From UHGV virus genome UHGV-0194287: DNA of 13,450 nt; one strand, 5' to 3'. Position numbers and translations under genes: made by a program. Shown here one piece after another: positions 1,166-13,450 of this stretch; the first letter of the stretch is position 1, and each line of letters starts with the position of its first letter. The notes under the pieces are model-generated. The model ran no database searches and was not told the DNA's origin. It was given only the letters and a program-made list of their open reading frames with translations. The stretch comes from a virus.

Positions 1166-1292
1166 AATGTCATAGGGAGTCGCGACTCCGTTGCGTATCC
1201 TTTTTTGTCTCCTCACCGTCTGGTCGGTGTCCTGCTGAGACTTATAACTTCCTGTTTTTGTTGGTGTAGTCCTTACACCGTCCAATCATGAT

Positions 1293-1337
1293 TGGTGGGC
1301 TGGCGGGAGTTGAACCCGCGTCCGAAATTCCTACATA
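1293..1337 (-). repeat. About 45-nt copy of the ssrA (tmRNA) 3' end, a prophage attachment-site repeat (attL/attR type), not a complete tmRNA gene
   Basis: Minus strand reads ATGTAGGAATTTCGGACGCGGGTTCAACTCCCGCCAGCCCACCA, i.e. T-loop GGTTCAACTCC, acceptor 3' strand and CCA end of tmRNA. Sequence 5' of it (plus 1338 onward) is AT-rich and unrelated to tmRNA. Confidence 0.75.
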
Positions 1338-1450
1338 CCATTATTACTATAATAAAAACATATAATTATCAAATAAAACAAATGATTAGTCTTAATTTGT
1401 GTTTGGTCGTTTTAGGCGTTTTTAATGCTCTGCCGCCAAAGTGTCGCCAC

Positions 1451-2686
1451 TTACGTGTGCAGTGTATGTTCGATTTTTTGATGTTTGAATAACCGATCAA
1501 CCAATAATTCAAGTTTGTGAAAATCTGTAAGAGGATATAGCTTCACGATGTCTTCCTCAAAATTCGCTATACCTGATAATTTTTCTTTTTTTCGTAAGTA
1601 ATCGATGGCAATTCTTTGTTCATTCGATATCTCAAACTGATTTTGATAATCTAAGGTTTTAAGTACTTGCCAAGACATAGGGGCTGTAAATTCGAAGTAA
1701 GAAGCTAGTTTTGGACAAAAATCATATTGAATAGATTGCTTATAGGTTGCTTTAGGTGGTAATACAACATTAACAGAATATTTACTGCTCCTAGAATTCG
1801 GCATTTTTGTAGAGTAATATGCTATCCCCGCTATTGGTGATTTAACCCGACGACCGATCCACTGCATTAATAAATTTGGGATTATATATTCAGGTGTGAA
1901 TGATGAATTTTCTACGCGTTTTAAATAATTGCAAGCGATTAGTAATGGCCAGAATATCAAGTATGATGCTTTTGTTCTGTTTTCATCATATATTTTATTT
2001 TCATCAACAGTTTTTTTAATTGGAAGTGAAAGGTGAGGAGAAGCAAAATTTAAAATTGTTGAATTTACATCGTTTGTAACGAAGGATGATATATATAATT
2101 TATCAAAATCTGGCTTTCCCATCTCTTGCCAACATACGTACAAGGATGTACCGAGATATAAGCAGGGTTGGCCTGCGACTGAATATCTTTGAGCATTCAC
2201 TAAATGTCTTTTTGAAAACGGAATATGAAATATTTGGTTGTGCTCAATCAAAGGGGTTTCTGATTTTCTGACCCGATAAAGTGGCTTTTCCTTATTGCAA
2301 AAATCTTTTAGCAAGATACTAATTCGATTTAGTTGGGCTATTGTTGCCTCCTTTGACATAATGTCATCGAAAATGTCATATGCTTTTTTAATATCTCCAG
2401 ACAAAAACTCCTCTAGAGTTTTTTGTATGCACTTATGAATATTTGCAACTCGTCCTTTTAGAACTCTAAGTTCCCTACCGCATCCATTCATGTCTGCTTT
2501 TATTGATTCATCAATTAAAGTCATATAAATTTTACATCGATTAGAAAAATCACTGGCTATATCGCCTTTAATGTTGAATGGTGGATTTAATTCTTCATGG
2601 CTCAATAGTCGCTCAAGAAAGTGATCAATCCAGAGTGCATTTTTCTTTTCTGATTCTAATTGAGTACTGGATTTTTTTTCGTCCAT
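1451..2686 (-). CDS. RES-domain protein (411 aa), putative NAD+-targeting toxin/effector with N- and C-terminal extensions; prophage cargo gene
   Basis: Complete ORF; start 4 nt after the integrase stop. Motifs typical of the RES domain: LYRVRKSE, QRYSVAGQPCLYLGTSLYVCWQE (R...G.P.LYLG.S......E) and GIAYYSTKMPNSRSSKYSVNVVL (GI.Y.S....S...N.VL). Markedly AT-rich compared with neighbouring genes. Confidence 0.6.
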   Translation of the reverse strand: MDEKKSSTQLESEKKNALWIDHFLERLLSHEELNPPFNIKGDIASDFSNRCKIYMTLIDESIKADMNGCGRELRVLKGRVANIHKCIQKTLEEFLSGDIKKAYDIFDDIMSKEATIAQLNRISILLKDFCNKEKPLYRVRKSETPLIEHNQIFHIPFSKRHLVNAQRYSVAGQPCLYLGTSLYVCWQEMGKPDFDKLYISSFVTNDVNSTILNFASPHLSLPIKKTVDENKIYDENRTKASYLIFWPLLIACNYLKRVENSSFTPEYIIPNLLMQWIGRRVKSPIAGIAYYSTKMPNSRSSKYSVNVVLPPKATYKQSIQYDFCPKLASYFEFTAPMSWQVLKTLDYQNQFEISNEQRIAIDYLRKKEKLSGIANFEEDIVKLYPLTDFHKLELLVDRLFKHQKIEHTLHT

Positions 2687-3708: not shown

Positions 3709-4341
3709 TCAAAGGCTCTTAATGATTTTCAGTGCGCGGCCTACTACCTCAATGTCATCCAGACCGCACTCAAACGATGAATCATCCTGATGCACTACTA
3801 ATTTGTTTCCCGGGAGTCGTGTCAATTTAACAATGCTTTTTATCCCGTCGATGTCCACTAACCACATACCATTTACTGGTGGTGTTTGGTTGCGATCTAT
3901 TAAATAAGAATCACCAGAAGTAGTCACCAGCAGCAGGTTGCTTGAATCTGAGGGGAGTATGCTGCTATCAATGATTGCTTTTCCCGCATCGATCAATAAA
4001 CCACCGTTGAGAGTCGCCTTGTCAATTTCAGGAGATACTAGTTCAGAAAGAGGTACAACCTTGCTGGAGTTCACGGAATTGATATTTTTTTTAGGTTCAA
4101 TGTTTGGACCTGGCTCCCCCTGTCCGGTGGTTAGCCACAGTAAAGAAACTCCTGTTTCCAAGGCGCACTGAATCACCCACTCTGCAGGAAAACTATCTCT
4201 TAAGTATCTGTTTGCCATGGTGCTTTTTGATGCGCCTAAGTGATCGCAAAGTTGCTGTCTGGACTTGAAATCATAGGCTGCCATTAGTCTATGGATAGCC
4301 TCTCTTCCCCCTGTATTCTCTCCAACCTTTACCTGTATCAT
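3709..4341 (-). CDS. CI-like immunity repressor, N-terminal HTH plus C-terminal LexA/S24 peptidase-like domain (210 aa)
   Basis: N-terminal HTH-like region (QQLCDHLGASKSTMANRYL). C-terminal GDSYLID ... IVKLTRL ... IEVVGRALKII resembles the S24 Ser/Lys dyad region. Divergent from the rightward early operon, translationally coupled to int. Confidence 0.85.
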   Translation of the reverse strand: MIQVKVGENTGGREAIHRLMAAYDFKSRQQLCDHLGASKSTMANRYLRDSFPAEWVIQCALETGVSLLWLTTGQGEPGPNIEPKKNINSVNSSKVVPLSELVSPEIDKATLNGGLLIDAGKAIIDSSILPSDSSNLLLVTTSGDSYLIDRNQTPPVNGMWLVDIDGIKSIVKLTRLPGNKLVVHQDDSSFECGLDDIEVVGRALKIIKSL

Positions 4342-10489: not shown

Positions 10490-10678
10490 ATGCAGGACTA
10501 TTTTTTGGAGTCTTTGAAGCTCCAGCGCATTGATTTTTTTCTTAAGCTTGTAGCGGCTAGTGAGTGTAGTGATGAAGAGAAGGGGCTGGCTCTGCAGTGG
10601 GTTTCTGAATTGACTGATGAACTCATGGCAAAAATCAGAACCCACGAATACAACCGCTCAATGGATGTCATCAGCTGA
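10490..10678 (+). CDS. Small SOS-regulated protein (62 aa), candidate Tum-like antirepressor component
   Basis: ATG 10490 preceded by TAGGAGG; immediately downstream of the LexA box; its stop is embedded in the RBS of the DinI-like gene. The track ORF from 10388 would include the promoter, so the internal start is preferred. Confidence 0.5.
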   Translation: MQDYFLESLKLQRIDFFLKLVAASECSDEEKGLALQWVSELTDELMAKIRTHEYNRSMDVIS

Positions 10679-10688
10679 GGTGACTTTT

Positions 10689-10922
10689 ATGCGCATTGAA
10701 ATAATGATCGATAAAGAGCAGAAGATTAGCCAGTCTACCCTAGACGCCCTTGAATCCGAGCTTTACCGCAATCTGCGCCCCCTGTATCCCAAAACGGTAA
10801 TTCGCATTCGCAAAGGTAGCTCTAACGGTGTGGAACTAACCGGACTGCAACTGGACGAAGAAAGAAAACAAGTGATGAAAATTATGCAGAAGGTGTGGGA
10901 AGACGACAGCTGGCTGCATTAA
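10689..10922 (+). CDS. DinI-family protein (77 aa)
   Basis: MRIEIMIDK...LDALESEL...ERKQVMKIMQKVWEDDSW parallels E. coli DinI (MRIEVTIAK...IDALAGEL...DKQRISEILQETWESADDW). GAGGTG RBS; start chosen at the internal ATG of the track ORF. Confidence 0.8.
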   Translation: MRIEIMIDKEQKISQSTLDALESELYRNLRPLYPKTVIRIRKGSSNGVELTGLQLDEERKQVMKIMQKVWEDDSWLH

Positions 10923-11255: not shown

Positions 11256-11954
11256 ATGGTTATGTTAGTGGATGACTGTCCACGATGTGGATCACAAAAA
11301 ATAGCGTTTGATGTTAATGGGCTGAATTGCACTAGGGTTTACAATGCATTGGGCGGGGGTAAAACATACGAGTACGAGGTCTATTGTGTTTGCCGAGAGT
11401 GTCATAAAACGACAATGTTTCTTTGCAGACCTTTAACGAAAAATAAAAATTTAGATGGCTATAATTGGGAAAGTGGAATATTCGGCTTAAAGGAAGTTGC
11501 AGAGGTTGTTAGGCCTATATCACCGGCAGACTTAGCAGTAGAGGAGCCACCAGAGTTCTTACCTGAGCATATCAATAGTGCATATGAGGAAGGGGCGAAA
11601 TGTTTGGCTATAGGTTGTTATAATGCAGCAGCAACCATGTTTAGGCTTTGCCTTGATTATGCCACAAAAGGACTTCTTCCTGATGGGGAGCAAGGGCCTG
11701 CGCAAAAAATAAGGAGAAGCCTAGGGTTAAGAATGGAGTGGTTATTTGATAATCATCTACTGCCTGAAGCTTTAAGGGAACTAGCTGAATGCGTTAAAGA
11801 TGACGGAAATGATGGAGCGCATGAAGGTATTTTGGATAAAGCTGCTGCTGAGGATCTTGAAGATTTTACCTATCTTTTTTTAGAACGGCTTTACACTGAA
11901 CCTCAACGCCTTATCGAAGCCAAGACAAGGCGTGAACAAAGAAGAAACAAATAA
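11256..11954 (+). CDS. Zinc-ribbon + DUF4145 (HEPN-like) protein (232 aa); candidate single-gene defence cargo
   Basis: N-terminal CPRCG...CVCRECH zinc ribbon. C-terminal region with AATMFRLCLDYA ... VKDDGNDGAHEG ... FLERLY fits the DUF4145 pattern (GN..AH core). Strong RBS; lower GC than the flanking phage genes. Confidence 0.6.
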   Translation: MVMLVDDCPRCGSQKIAFDVNGLNCTRVYNALGGGKTYEYEVYCVCRECHKTTMFLCRPLTKNKNLDGYNWESGIFGLKEVAEVVRPISPADLAVEEPPEFLPEHINSAYEEGAKCLAIGCYNAAATMFRLCLDYATKGLLPDGEQGPAQKIRRSLGLRMEWLFDNHLLPEALRELAECVKDDGNDGAHEGILDKAAAEDLEDFTYLFLERLYTEPQRLIEAKTRREQRRNK

Positions 11955-11962
11955 GTTCGGAA

Positions 11963-12600
11963 TTATTCTTCTGAAAGAATATAGGGCGTAAATTTAATCA
12001 CTTCTTCGCCCAGCCAGTCGTTCAGCTCTTGTAGCCTTTTTTGCAAGGGCGTTAATTCATTACGTACAAATACGCGACTGGCCTTCTCCACATCCCCAAA
12101 CCCTCCAACATTATTAGGCATAATCCCCATCATTTGCGGCGGCACGCGGTGCGCAGCCATCATGTCGTCGCGGCTGACATTTTTGATATTCAAAAACTCA
12201 TCCTTCGCCGCGACTTCTGACAATGGGATGATCTGAAGCCCGTCTTTTTTGCCGTTAGGCGAGTACATAAACAGGTTGCGGAAGTTGCCTGGACCTTTGG
12301 CGCTTTTCATCGCATTGCGGAGGTTGTTCACATCCTCCTGGTTTTGCGCGGCATCGGTCATGTACATGATAAAGCCCGCATGACTGCCGTTAATGTAATA
12401 CTTGCGACGGAACAGCGTGGCGGACTCGTTGAGCAGGGCTGACGGAATGGCAGAAAGATAACCGGGCAGGCCGTAGATCTCCTGATTAATATCCGGTTCC
12501 ATCAGATGAAAAATGCTGCCTTTCGTGAACTGATACGGCTGGGTTGTCATACCGTATTGCACAAACCAGTAGGTAACGGTTTTACGACCAGTATTGAACT
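11963..12600 (-). pseudogene. Truncated portal (gpQ-like) remnant, C-terminal ~200 aa only; N-terminal boundary approximate
   Basis: Minus-strand ORF, convergent with the cargo gene, in the position and orientation of P2 Q next to cos. Its first ~50-60 codons run through the ogr promoter and start region and look non-coding. A P2 portal is about 340 aa and no terminase or capsid genes follow. Confidence 0.45.
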
Positions 12601-12702: not shown

Positions 12703-12921
12703 ATGATGAATTGTCCAAAGTGTGGTCATGCGGCGCACACAAGGAGCAGTTTTCAAGTAACAGAAAGCACCAAAGAGCGTTACTGCCAGTGCCAAAATAT
12801 TAACTGCGGGAGCACTTTTGTTACCCATGAAACAGTGGTCCGGTTTATTGTGACACCTGCAGTGATTGCCACAGCCCCTCCACATCCATTGCCAGGTGGT
12901 CAGGGCCATATGAATTTTTAA
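12703..12921 (+). CDS. ogr: Ogr/Delta-family zinc-finger late-gene transcription activator (72 aa)
   Basis: MMNCPKCGHAAHTRSSFQVTESTKERYCQCQNINCGSTF parallels P2 Ogr (CPLCQHAAHARTS...TKERYHQCQNVNCSATF); identical length to P2 Ogr; AGGGA RBS. The track ORF starts 45 nt upstream; the internal ATG is preferred. Confidence 0.85.
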   Translation: MMNCPKCGHAAHTRSSFQVTESTKERYCQCQNINCGSTFVTHETVVRFIVTPAVIATAPPHPLPGGQGHMNF

Positions 12922-12928
12922 GAAAGAG

Positions 12929-12951
12929 AACCTGCTACGGCAGGTTTTTAT
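12929..12951. terminator. Bidirectional rho-independent terminator between ogr and the convergent gene
   Basis: AACCTGC-TACG-GCAGGTT hairpin followed by TTTTTATT on the plus strand and a T-rich tract on the minus strand. Confidence 0.55.
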
Positions 12952-13430
12952 TCATCTGGGATCTCACCCGTTTCAAGAAAATGTATAAAGCCAGGCTCAT
13001 CTATGATGATAGTGCCTTTCATCCTGGCTGCCGATACTTTTGATGGGCCTGCATTGTAACCGCAACAGAGCATCTGAAGGTTTTGGGTTACAGATGTTCT
13101 TACCGTTAATCCTTGTTCATTCGCCTTATCAACCAACCTTTCTTTATCTGCTTTCTTAAATCCGGTGAAACACACATCGAATGTATTTTTTTTCGGACCT
13201 GACTGCTTAGTGAGATGTGAGTAGTTTTCGGGGAGGAATGACGCGCATTCCTGAATGGCTTGTTCTTGTGAATCGTATTGTTTAAGAATGCGGTCTTTTC
13301 GGAAGGTTTTTATTCGATCGGTGTTCTTACAAATGCCCTGTATGTGATTTTCGCTATAACTGATGCTCTGTATTGAGTGAACACCGATACGACCATTTGC
13401 ATTGATGTAAACAAAGTGAAGTTCTTCCAT
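12948..13430 (-). CDS. Small WYL-like + BRCT-like two-domain protein (160 aa)
   Basis: N-terminus LHFVYINANGRIGVHSIQ...DRIKTFRKDRI resembles the WYL-domain core (Y...R...P... R.FR.DRI). C-terminus FDVCFTGF...RTSVTQNLQMLCCGYNAGPSKVSAARMKGTIIIDEPGF follows the BRCT pattern of NAD-ligase type (F.x.TG......SVSKKT..LV.G...GSK..KA...GI.II.E..F). Confidence 0.6.
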   Translation of the reverse strand: MEELHFVYINANGRIGVHSIQSISYSENHIQGICKNTDRIKTFRKDRILKQYDSQEQAIQECASFLPENYSHLTKQSGPKKNTFDVCFTGFKKADKERLVDKANEQGLTVRTSVTQNLQMLCCGYNAGPSKVSAARMKGTIIIDEPGFIHFLETGEIPDE

Positions 13431-13450
13431 GTCAAACCTCTTTGCATGAT

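Follow-up and report, generated by a model that had tools for sequence, protein, structure and literature searches.

A WYL–BRCT gene at the attR end of a P2-like prophage: a conserved lysogenic passenger and its candidate roles

The window analysed here is the whole 13,450-nt stretch of virus genome UHGV-0194287, and it contains a P2-like (Cartapus/Fels-2-like) prophage. Its landmarks begin with attL, a 411-aa cargo gene, the integrase gene and a 186-type CI repressor. The early and replication genes come next, followed by DUF4145 cargo and a truncated portal gene; beyond a junction at 12574/12575 lie the end of gene D, ogr and a gene for a small protein that unites a WYL with a BRCT domain. 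The features referred to throughout are as follows.

1291..1339, minus strand: attL, a displaced copy of the ssrA 3' end, which marks the other prophage boundary; located by eye.
1451-2686, minus strand: 411-aa cargo gene between integrase and attL, GC 33%.
3709-4341, minus strand: 186-type CI repressor (Phage_CI_repr and Phage_CI_C).
10617-10922, plus strand: DinI-family ORF (PF06183, E 1.3e-22), downstream of gpA.
11256-11954, plus strand: DUF4145 protein of 232 aa, GC 41.6%, placed after the replication region and before the portal gene.
12703..12921, plus strand: ogr/Delta zinc-finger late activator (PF04606), the convergent neighbour and last gene of the late region.
12929..12946, both strands: G+C-rich, terminator-like hairpin between the ogr and WYL–BRCT genes.
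12948..13430, minus strand: complete coding sequence of the 160-aa WYL–BRCT protein (Cartapus gp32; PHROG 2561).
13437..13441, minus strand: Shine–Dalgarno sequence AGAGG, 6 nt 5' of the WYL–BRCT ATG.

The WYL–BRCT reading frame is a genuine, conserved gene, far above chance expectation. It opens with ATG and encodes 160 aa on the minus strand (12948-13430), so that the compact ORF described in the first-pass annotation is present exactly as given. Only 20 nt of the window precede the start codon; the attP arm and the ssrA terminator, also part of the 5' region, are past the window edge. The match to PHROG 2561 is full-length (E 2.5e-77), with residues 1-159 aligned to positions 2-167 of the 167 in the profile. 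A large protein collection yields 122 homologues, mostly of about 160 aa and with identities as low as 33%, and the identical sequence is carried by at least 1000 contigs. Starts and stops of the aligned homologues coincide, and 86 of the best 150 family representatives are shorter than 200 aa. The protein is therefore compact and no fragment; the possibility raised earlier, that the ORF is part of a larger disrupted gene, is set aside by the full-length family match and the aligned ends. The GC content of the gene is 41.0%, compared with 49.7% for the early region, and this low value is a moron signature.

On its 3' side the gene converges with ogr. The intervening hairpin (12929-12946) is stable on both strands, with folding energies of -17.3 kcal/mol on the plus strand (z -4.9) and -10.8 kcal/mol on the minus strand (z -3.5). 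The PF04606 match at 12703-12921 confirms the convergent ogr gene, and the stability on both strands agrees with the bidirectional terminator first proposed.

The surroundings on the 5' side change the interpretation. The gene had been placed just outside the recognizable phage genes, as a regulator or sensor of genes further right. Where E. coli genomes carry this DNA at 100% identity, an 88-nt spacer comes first on the right, then a terminator hairpin, then ssrA (tmRNA) and smpB; ssrA lies on the WYL–BRCT strand, and its 3' end is 123 nt upstream of the ATG. Because ssrA and smpB come next in these identical genomes, the WYL–BRCT gene is the last prophage gene before attR, and because attL is at 1291..1339, it stands at the attR end of the same element. 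It belongs to the prophage, with ogr on one side and attR on the other, and its product is 100% identical to gp32 of phage Cartapus. Inspection of the DNA right of 13450 for partner genes found attR, the ssrA terminator, ssrA and smpB, with nothing phage- or defence-like among them. The proposal of a regulator for rightward genes is rejected on this ground; the genomic context largely refutes it, and no partner operon is to be expected there. The same arrangement of smpB, tmRNA, WYL–BRCT gene and convergent ogr and D is also found in five further enterobacterial genera, Erwinia, Klebsiella, Plesiomonas, Tatumella and Citrobacter.

A wider form of the same idea has the protein act as sensor or regulator for an effector encoded nearby, either rightward or by the 411-aa gene across attP. 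WYL domains commonly regulate defence systems (PMC4012209), and the circular Cartapus record has the repressor (C, or CI), int, a 401-aa 'RES-like' cargo gene, attP and the WYL–BRCT gene on one strand, the last of these convergent with ogr. Integration, however, puts the 411-aa and WYL–BRCT genes at opposite ends of the prophage, and strain TOK-001 has GapS1 instead of the 411-aa gene while its WYL–BRCT gene is identical. On these two facts the int-proximal gene is rejected as a partner. Rightward there are only ssrA and smpB, homologues in other phages occur without a 411-aa neighbour, and the protein has no DNA-binding HTH. A role as sensor for any neighbouring effector is thus very improbable.

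The attachment region has some features of its own. Between the attL copy of the ssrA 3' end and the phage-supplied copy at attR there is a 1-nt indel, together with a few substitutions (L002 4832-4880; L001 14955-15000). On integration ssrA is restored by the phage copy, which carries its own terminator hairpin. Scans of the window for tRNA/tmRNA genes and Rfam families gave no matches. The 88-nt spacer, 5' of the WYL–BRCT ATG and beyond the window, contains ATGGCGACAG and an inverted copy, CTGTCGCCAT (L002 4717-4730, 4930-4985), and a third copy, ATGGCGACA, lies across the attP core from the spacer. The three are probably arm-type sites of the integrase that overlap the WYL–BRCT 5' UTR. In the mRNA, ATGGCGACAG and CTGTCGCCAT could also base-pair into an 8-bp stem.

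In an AlphaFold2 model of the protein, built with 64 homologues and with a mean pLDDT of 91.7, there are two folded units, and residues ~67-83 between them form a low-confidence linker. The parts correspond to the following coordinates.

13233..13430, minus strand: WYL / Sm-like beta-barrel, aa 1-66; five strands, then a helix.
13182..13232, minus strand: linker, aa 67-83; variable in length and sequence, with the lowest pLDDT (block mean 66).
12951..13181, minus strand: BRCT domain, aa 84-160; motifs CFTGFKKxDK and CCGYNAGPxK, and a conserved C-terminal TGEIP tail.

WYL domain, linker and BRCT domain cover the 160 aa fully, and neither Pfam nor the model places an HTH in them. The N-terminal unit is a confidently folded five-stranded Sm/SH3-like beta-barrel. 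By sequence the window protein itself gives no PF13280 match at E<=10 and is matched as WYL only by PADLOC (E 0.027). PF13280 is matched by 11 of the 64 close homologues (best 1.5e-5) and by 24 of 59 longer ones (best 1.2e-8). The WYL core assigned on first inspection is therefore upheld by the modelled barrel and by the homologues, with the window protein sub-threshold. Searched against PDB sequences, a profile of the N-terminal domain finds only the WYL domains of PafBC and PafC, at non-significant values (E 0.9-1.5).

Conservation within the domain involves Y8, S24, S26, E/D27, H/Y29, Q31, G32 and the stretch K/R41-T42-F43-R44-K45-D46-R47. T42 is invariant, and each of F43, R44, K45, D46 and R47 is kept in 53-61 of the 64 sequences. 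This basic K/R41-R47 motif is aligned with NFRLDRV of PafBC and LFRFDRI of PafC. The W-Y-L triad itself reads N-H-I in the window protein. In CapW, arginines R164 and R168 of the RWHVR motif flank the WYL triad and contact single-stranded DNA (ssDNA) (PMC11662680). Their counterparts here, by an indirect alignment via PafBC, are E/D27 (54 of 64 sequences) and Q31 (49 of 64). As the ssDNA-contacting arginines are replaced, the ligand of the WYL–BRCT protein may not be ssDNA.

The C-terminal unit has the BRCT alpha/beta fold in the model. The window protein scores just below the Pfam BRCT cut-off (PF00533; E 9e-4, 19.9 bits against 21.3), and Pfam BRCT is matched by 54 of the 64 homologues. The best solved relatives of the family profile are BRCT chains of RFC1 and LigA (E 7e-5 to 4e-4). 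These two results corroborate the earlier assignment to the NAD-ligase type of BRCT, and structure prediction and profile analysis together support both halves of the protein, the profile support for the WYL half coming from its homologues. T89, G90 and K131 are invariant in the 64 sequences, and position 96 is lysine in 61 and arginine in 3. T89-G90, K96 and K131 are aligned with the 'FTG', Arg and Lys positions of yeast and human RFC1, the last within '...SK/PKK'. In RFC1, residues T415, R423 and K458 reportedly bind the 5' phosphate, a result attributed to Kobayashi et al., and we take T89, K96 and K131 to be the equivalents of these phosphate-pocket residues. The predicted phosphate pocket of the BRCT domain is intact and of the RFC1/LigA class. 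Fold, closest sequence relatives and the TG...K/R...K phosphate-binding positions are thus shared with LigA and RFC1. In those proteins, however, the domain is joined to ligase or AAA+ modules, whereas here it is, from sequence, joined to WYL and acidic, with a calculated pI of 5.3. The whole protein has a pI of 6.95, near-neutral and not basic.

BRCT pockets also bind phosphopeptides and ADP-ribose. The protein might be a ligand sponge or decoy, in which the WYL surface and the BRCT pocket would take up a small molecule or a phosphoprotein and so act as an anti-defence or signalling buffer. The small molecule would be of nucleotide type, for instance an oligonucleotide (cyclic or linear), a derivative of ADP-ribose or a signal related to NAD, and the WYL surface involved would be formed by E27, H29, Q31, R44, K45 and R47, which are conserved but non-canonical. 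The replacement of the CapW arginines favours this view, as do the small size, the want of a catalytic domain, the expression in lysogens described below and the acidic to neutral character of the protein. One WYL regulator, moreover, is reported as a c-di-GMP sensor (PMC11880434). On the other side, the closest BRCT relatives by sequence are of the DNA-binding RFC1/LigA class, and anti-defence genes are rarely placed among lysogenic instead of early-lytic genes. A sponge is a rather improbable answer.

Database names for the protein point elsewhere. Identical proteins are labelled 'hypothetical protein', 'BRCT domain-containing protein' or 'NAD-dependent DNA ligase'; RefSeq WP_000391796 is one identical protein. 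'DNA ligase' is the label in PHROG 2561, NC_049342 and NC_008201, and the Cartapus record (NC_070909) has 'putative exonuclease protein'. Ligase identity was rejected, LigA models being matched over only their last ~70-105 positions, the BRCT end; the LigA adenylation (KxDG), OB-fold, Zn-finger and HhH domains are absent from the 160-aa protein. An exonuclease was likewise rejected. The match to NF004719 (DEDDh with BRCT) covers positions 229-307 of 331, which is the BRCT part, and scores 26 bits against a cut-off of 389; the protein contains no DEDDh exonuclease domain. Judged by these alignments, the names 'DNA ligase' and 'exonuclease' are annotation transfers from the BRCT domain alone. 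This holds for PHROG 2561 and Cartapus gp32 too: membership is full-length in the one and the protein identical in the other, and their names reflect only BRCT. The present analysis corrects this widespread misannotation of the family.

The same matches raise the question whether the gene is a non-functional remnant, captured from a gene for an NAD-dependent DNA ligase or a BRCT-bearing exonuclease. The C-terminal part does match ligase and DEDDh-exonuclease models of NCBIfam and PHROG, and viral LigA models are the top Foldseek matches. The model matches are nevertheless limited to the BRCT end, and adenylation, OB and exonuclease domains cannot fit in 160 aa. The N-terminal domain is a confidently folded WYL barrel, and conservation is full-length from 77% down to 33% identity, across many genera and with invariant residues in both domains. 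No frameshifts or stops are evident among the aligned full-length homologues. The domain content refutes a catalytic function, and decay from such a gene is scarcely credible.

A further candidate identity, membership of the PADLOC family PDC-S48, was also rejected. The window protein matches only the BRCT end of the 411-position profile (E 1.7e-7, positions 334-406, or ~324-406 in the comparison with its longer relatives), nine relatives match ~297-406, and the remainder of PDC-S48 is unrelated. PDC-S48 had been matched by 48 of the 59 long relatives before per-protein coverage was examined. What the two have in common is a C-terminal BRCT domain of similar type; since the likeness is BRCT-only, the WYL–BRCT proteins are a separate family and gain no defence-island support from it. 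Nor is the pairing of domains a new observation: a WYL+BRCT fusion was recorded by Makarova et al. in 2014 (PMC4012209), and PHROG 2561 is the catalogue entry of the family. The earlier remark that the pairing was not recognized as a characterized family stands, in that no functional study of it, or of PDC-S48, was found in the searchable literature.

The breadth of the family was assessed by a profile search of 1.8 billion representatives. The number of clusters matched is 2486 at E<=1e-3, a set that includes BRCT-only matches, 878 at E<=1e-10 and 204 at E<=1e-30. Among the best 150 representatives, the 86 short ones are soluble and 64 are longer; 44 of these 64 (~30% of representatives) have transmembrane-like segments. 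The transmembrane-like extensions are mostly N-terminal and mutually unrelated in sequence, many relatives having 1-5 N-terminal hydrophobic segments fused to the WYL–BRCT module; other long forms repeat BRCT or WYL–BRCT. Pfam finds only BRCT and WYL in 59 longer relatives, with no recurrent enzymatic fusion partner.

In Mannheimia phage PHL101 the homologue begins 3 nt after the CI gene. P2-like Vibrio phage PV94 has the order C, homologue, hypothetical gene, int, and in P2-like Burkholderia phages the order is XRE, hypothetical gene, homologue, convergent D. Across 40 species loci, the gene follows a repressor in 10 and follows smpB-tmRNA, convergent with ogr and D, in 6; the remaining 24, mostly MAGs, have no recognizable phage context. 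Further metagenomic and genomic relatives agree, with all six informative cases downstream of an HTH/S24 repressor. Five follow it directly, and in the sixth a 268-aa gene intervenes. Several of the six are in P2-like gene sets and one is in a Cro/CI lambdoid-type switch; five carry N-terminal hydrophobic segments. The hydrophobic-segment relatives that could be placed (P0212/L050, P0196/L052, P0139/L054, P0244/L055, P0237/L051) follow their repressor genes at gaps of 10-75 nt. Because of this repressor-adjacent placement across phages, usually right after the immunity repressor, the WYL–BRCT module is a passenger that recurs in the lysogenic (repressor-integrase) transcription unit of temperate phages. 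One membrane-type relative adjoins a Gp49/HI1420 toxin-antitoxin pair.

Such a position is compatible with a modulator of DNA-damage responses or prophage induction. The WYL domain would sense ssDNA arising from damage and the BRCT domain would relay the signal to a protein partner, candidates being the prophage repressor, RecA, SSB, the beta-clamp and LigA, thereby tuning induction or host repair instead of excluding other phages. Co-transcription with the immunity repressor in many phages speaks for this, as does the fact that WYL regulators are ssDNA-triggered damage sensors. The present prophage also has both a DinI-like gene and a 186-type CI, a combination that points to an SOS-linked switch like that of coliphage 186, unlike that of non-inducible P2. 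The neighbouring repressors differ, however, some having a self-cleaving S24 domain and some not, so that no one switch mechanism fits; membrane-anchored forms, too, suit a cytoplasmic switch modulator poorly. Matches to the window protein occur in 28 of 50,697 phage records, and it is therefore accessory, not core to the lysogeny switch. On balance a modulator is unlikely, though it deserves some weight.

Expression in a lysogen has been reported. In RNA-seq data from E. coli LF82, the Cartapus 'putative exonuclease protein' is 15-fold over the local prophage background and CI 5-fold (PMC9928086). Only one gene of the Cartapus record bears that name, and the window ORF matches it with 100% identity. 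The interval from the ssrA terminator to the WYL–BRCT ATG yielded no sigma-70-like promoter, and transcription may therefore come from ssrA read-through. The LF82 signal could be passive read-through of this kind, and the read-through may be an adaptive device or no more than a trivial cause of the RNA-seq signal.

Taken as a whole, the WYL–BRCT gene is an accessory ('moron'-type) gene of a P2-like temperate phage and encodes two binding-type domains. For its function, we tentatively prefer a reading that is plausible without being probable: a non-enzymatic binder of ssDNA and 5'-phosphate ends, which would act in lysogens against incoming phage DNA. The proposed steps are: (i) In the ssrA-integrating lineage, integration sets the gene right after the highly expressed ssrA, and read-through may give lysogenic transcription. 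(ii) In the lysogen, the WYL domain would hold single-stranded DNA and the BRCT domain a 5'-phosphate terminus or nick. (iii) Candidate targets are a cohesive end, gap or nick of incoming or replicating foreign phage DNA. (iv) Sequestering that structure would hinder circularization, ligation or replication of the superinfecting phage. (v) The outcome would be superinfection exclusion or defence through binding, not catalysis.

Counted in favour of such exclusion are the domain content, the conserved phosphate-pocket residues, the WYL precedent, the lysogenic placement, the LF82 expression, the low GC and the transmembrane-like relatives. The precedent is that WYL domains of CapW, DriD and PafBC bind ssDNA (PMC11662680, PMC10853764, PMC11804915). 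Counted against it are the non-basic character of the protein, the replaced CapW arginines, the phosphopeptides and ADP-ribose that BRCT pockets can also bind, the possible read-through origin of the LF82 signal, the BRCT-only likeness to PDC-S48 and the 24 of 40 loci without phage context. Analogy with known exclusion genes may also be drawn. Lambda rexAB are lysogen-expressed exclusion genes of the immunity region, and the P2-like vibriophage K139 reportedly has an exclusion gene, glo, in the same region, as described by Nesper in 1999. That work is cited in PMC4870250. The suggested likeness to rexAB and glo lies in placement after the immunity repressor, lysogen expression, patchy, moron-like distribution and the membrane anchoring of many relatives; there is no kinship of sequence or fold, and the comparison is one of position only.

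A bolder version of exclusion by binding, which is doubtful, would make the family a so far unrecognized class of effector-less exclusion factors. They would trap the 5'-phosphorylated single-stranded cohesive end, or a nick or gap, of phage DNA on entry, with the ssDNA bound by WYL and the 5' phosphate by the BRCT pocket, and so block circularization; in the ssrA-integrating lineage, integration after the tmRNA gene would switch them on. The 160-aa form would then bind in the cytoplasm and the transmembrane-fused forms at the inner membrane.

The established WYL proteins provide a contrast. To our knowledge, every WYL domain characterized so far senses a ligand and is coupled to an HTH or an enzyme. 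In the wHTH-WYL-WCX factors PafBC, DriD, CapW and BrxR, the barrel is accompanied by wHTH and WCX, both of which are missing here, where the output is BRCT; lacking them, the WYL–BRCT protein cannot be a transcription factor of that type. It also differs from these factors in carrying E/D27 and Q31 at the indirectly aligned positions of the CapW arginines. Here the WYL sensor is coupled solely to a BRCT domain of predicted phosphate-binding type, or to BRCT and a membrane anchor. If binding of DNA ends or ssDNA does exclude phages, it would represent a simple, catalysis-free principle of defence or exclusion and a new output mode for WYL domains. The family is in any case well defined and widespread, systematically located beside prophage repressors and expressed in LF82, a clinically studied E. 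coli lysogen.

Other parts of the prophage merit brief description. At 12574/12575, a portal fragment (11963-12574, minus strand) directly abuts gene D, of which the final ~60 nt are present upstream of ogr. The prophage lacks about 21 kb of structural genes, a block that intact versions (LF82/Cartapus) keep. The junction is spanned by none of 5,426 complete E. coli genomes; it is either a unique deletion that left a defective prophage or an artefact of assembly or construction. The DUF4145 gene occupies a site corresponding to the P2 old/tin-type hotspot, and its product has a weak likeness to PADLOC PD-T7-4 (E 1.2e-6). The 411-aa gene at 1451-2686 has no Pfam or PADLOC match and is named 'putative RES protein, NAD+ binding domain' in Cartapus. 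The same position between int and attL holds GapS1 in TOK-001 (L048 5084-6604) and AIPR, P-loop NTPase, nuclease or HNH genes in other strains. Given these varied contents, the interval looks like a variable hotspot for defence cargo.
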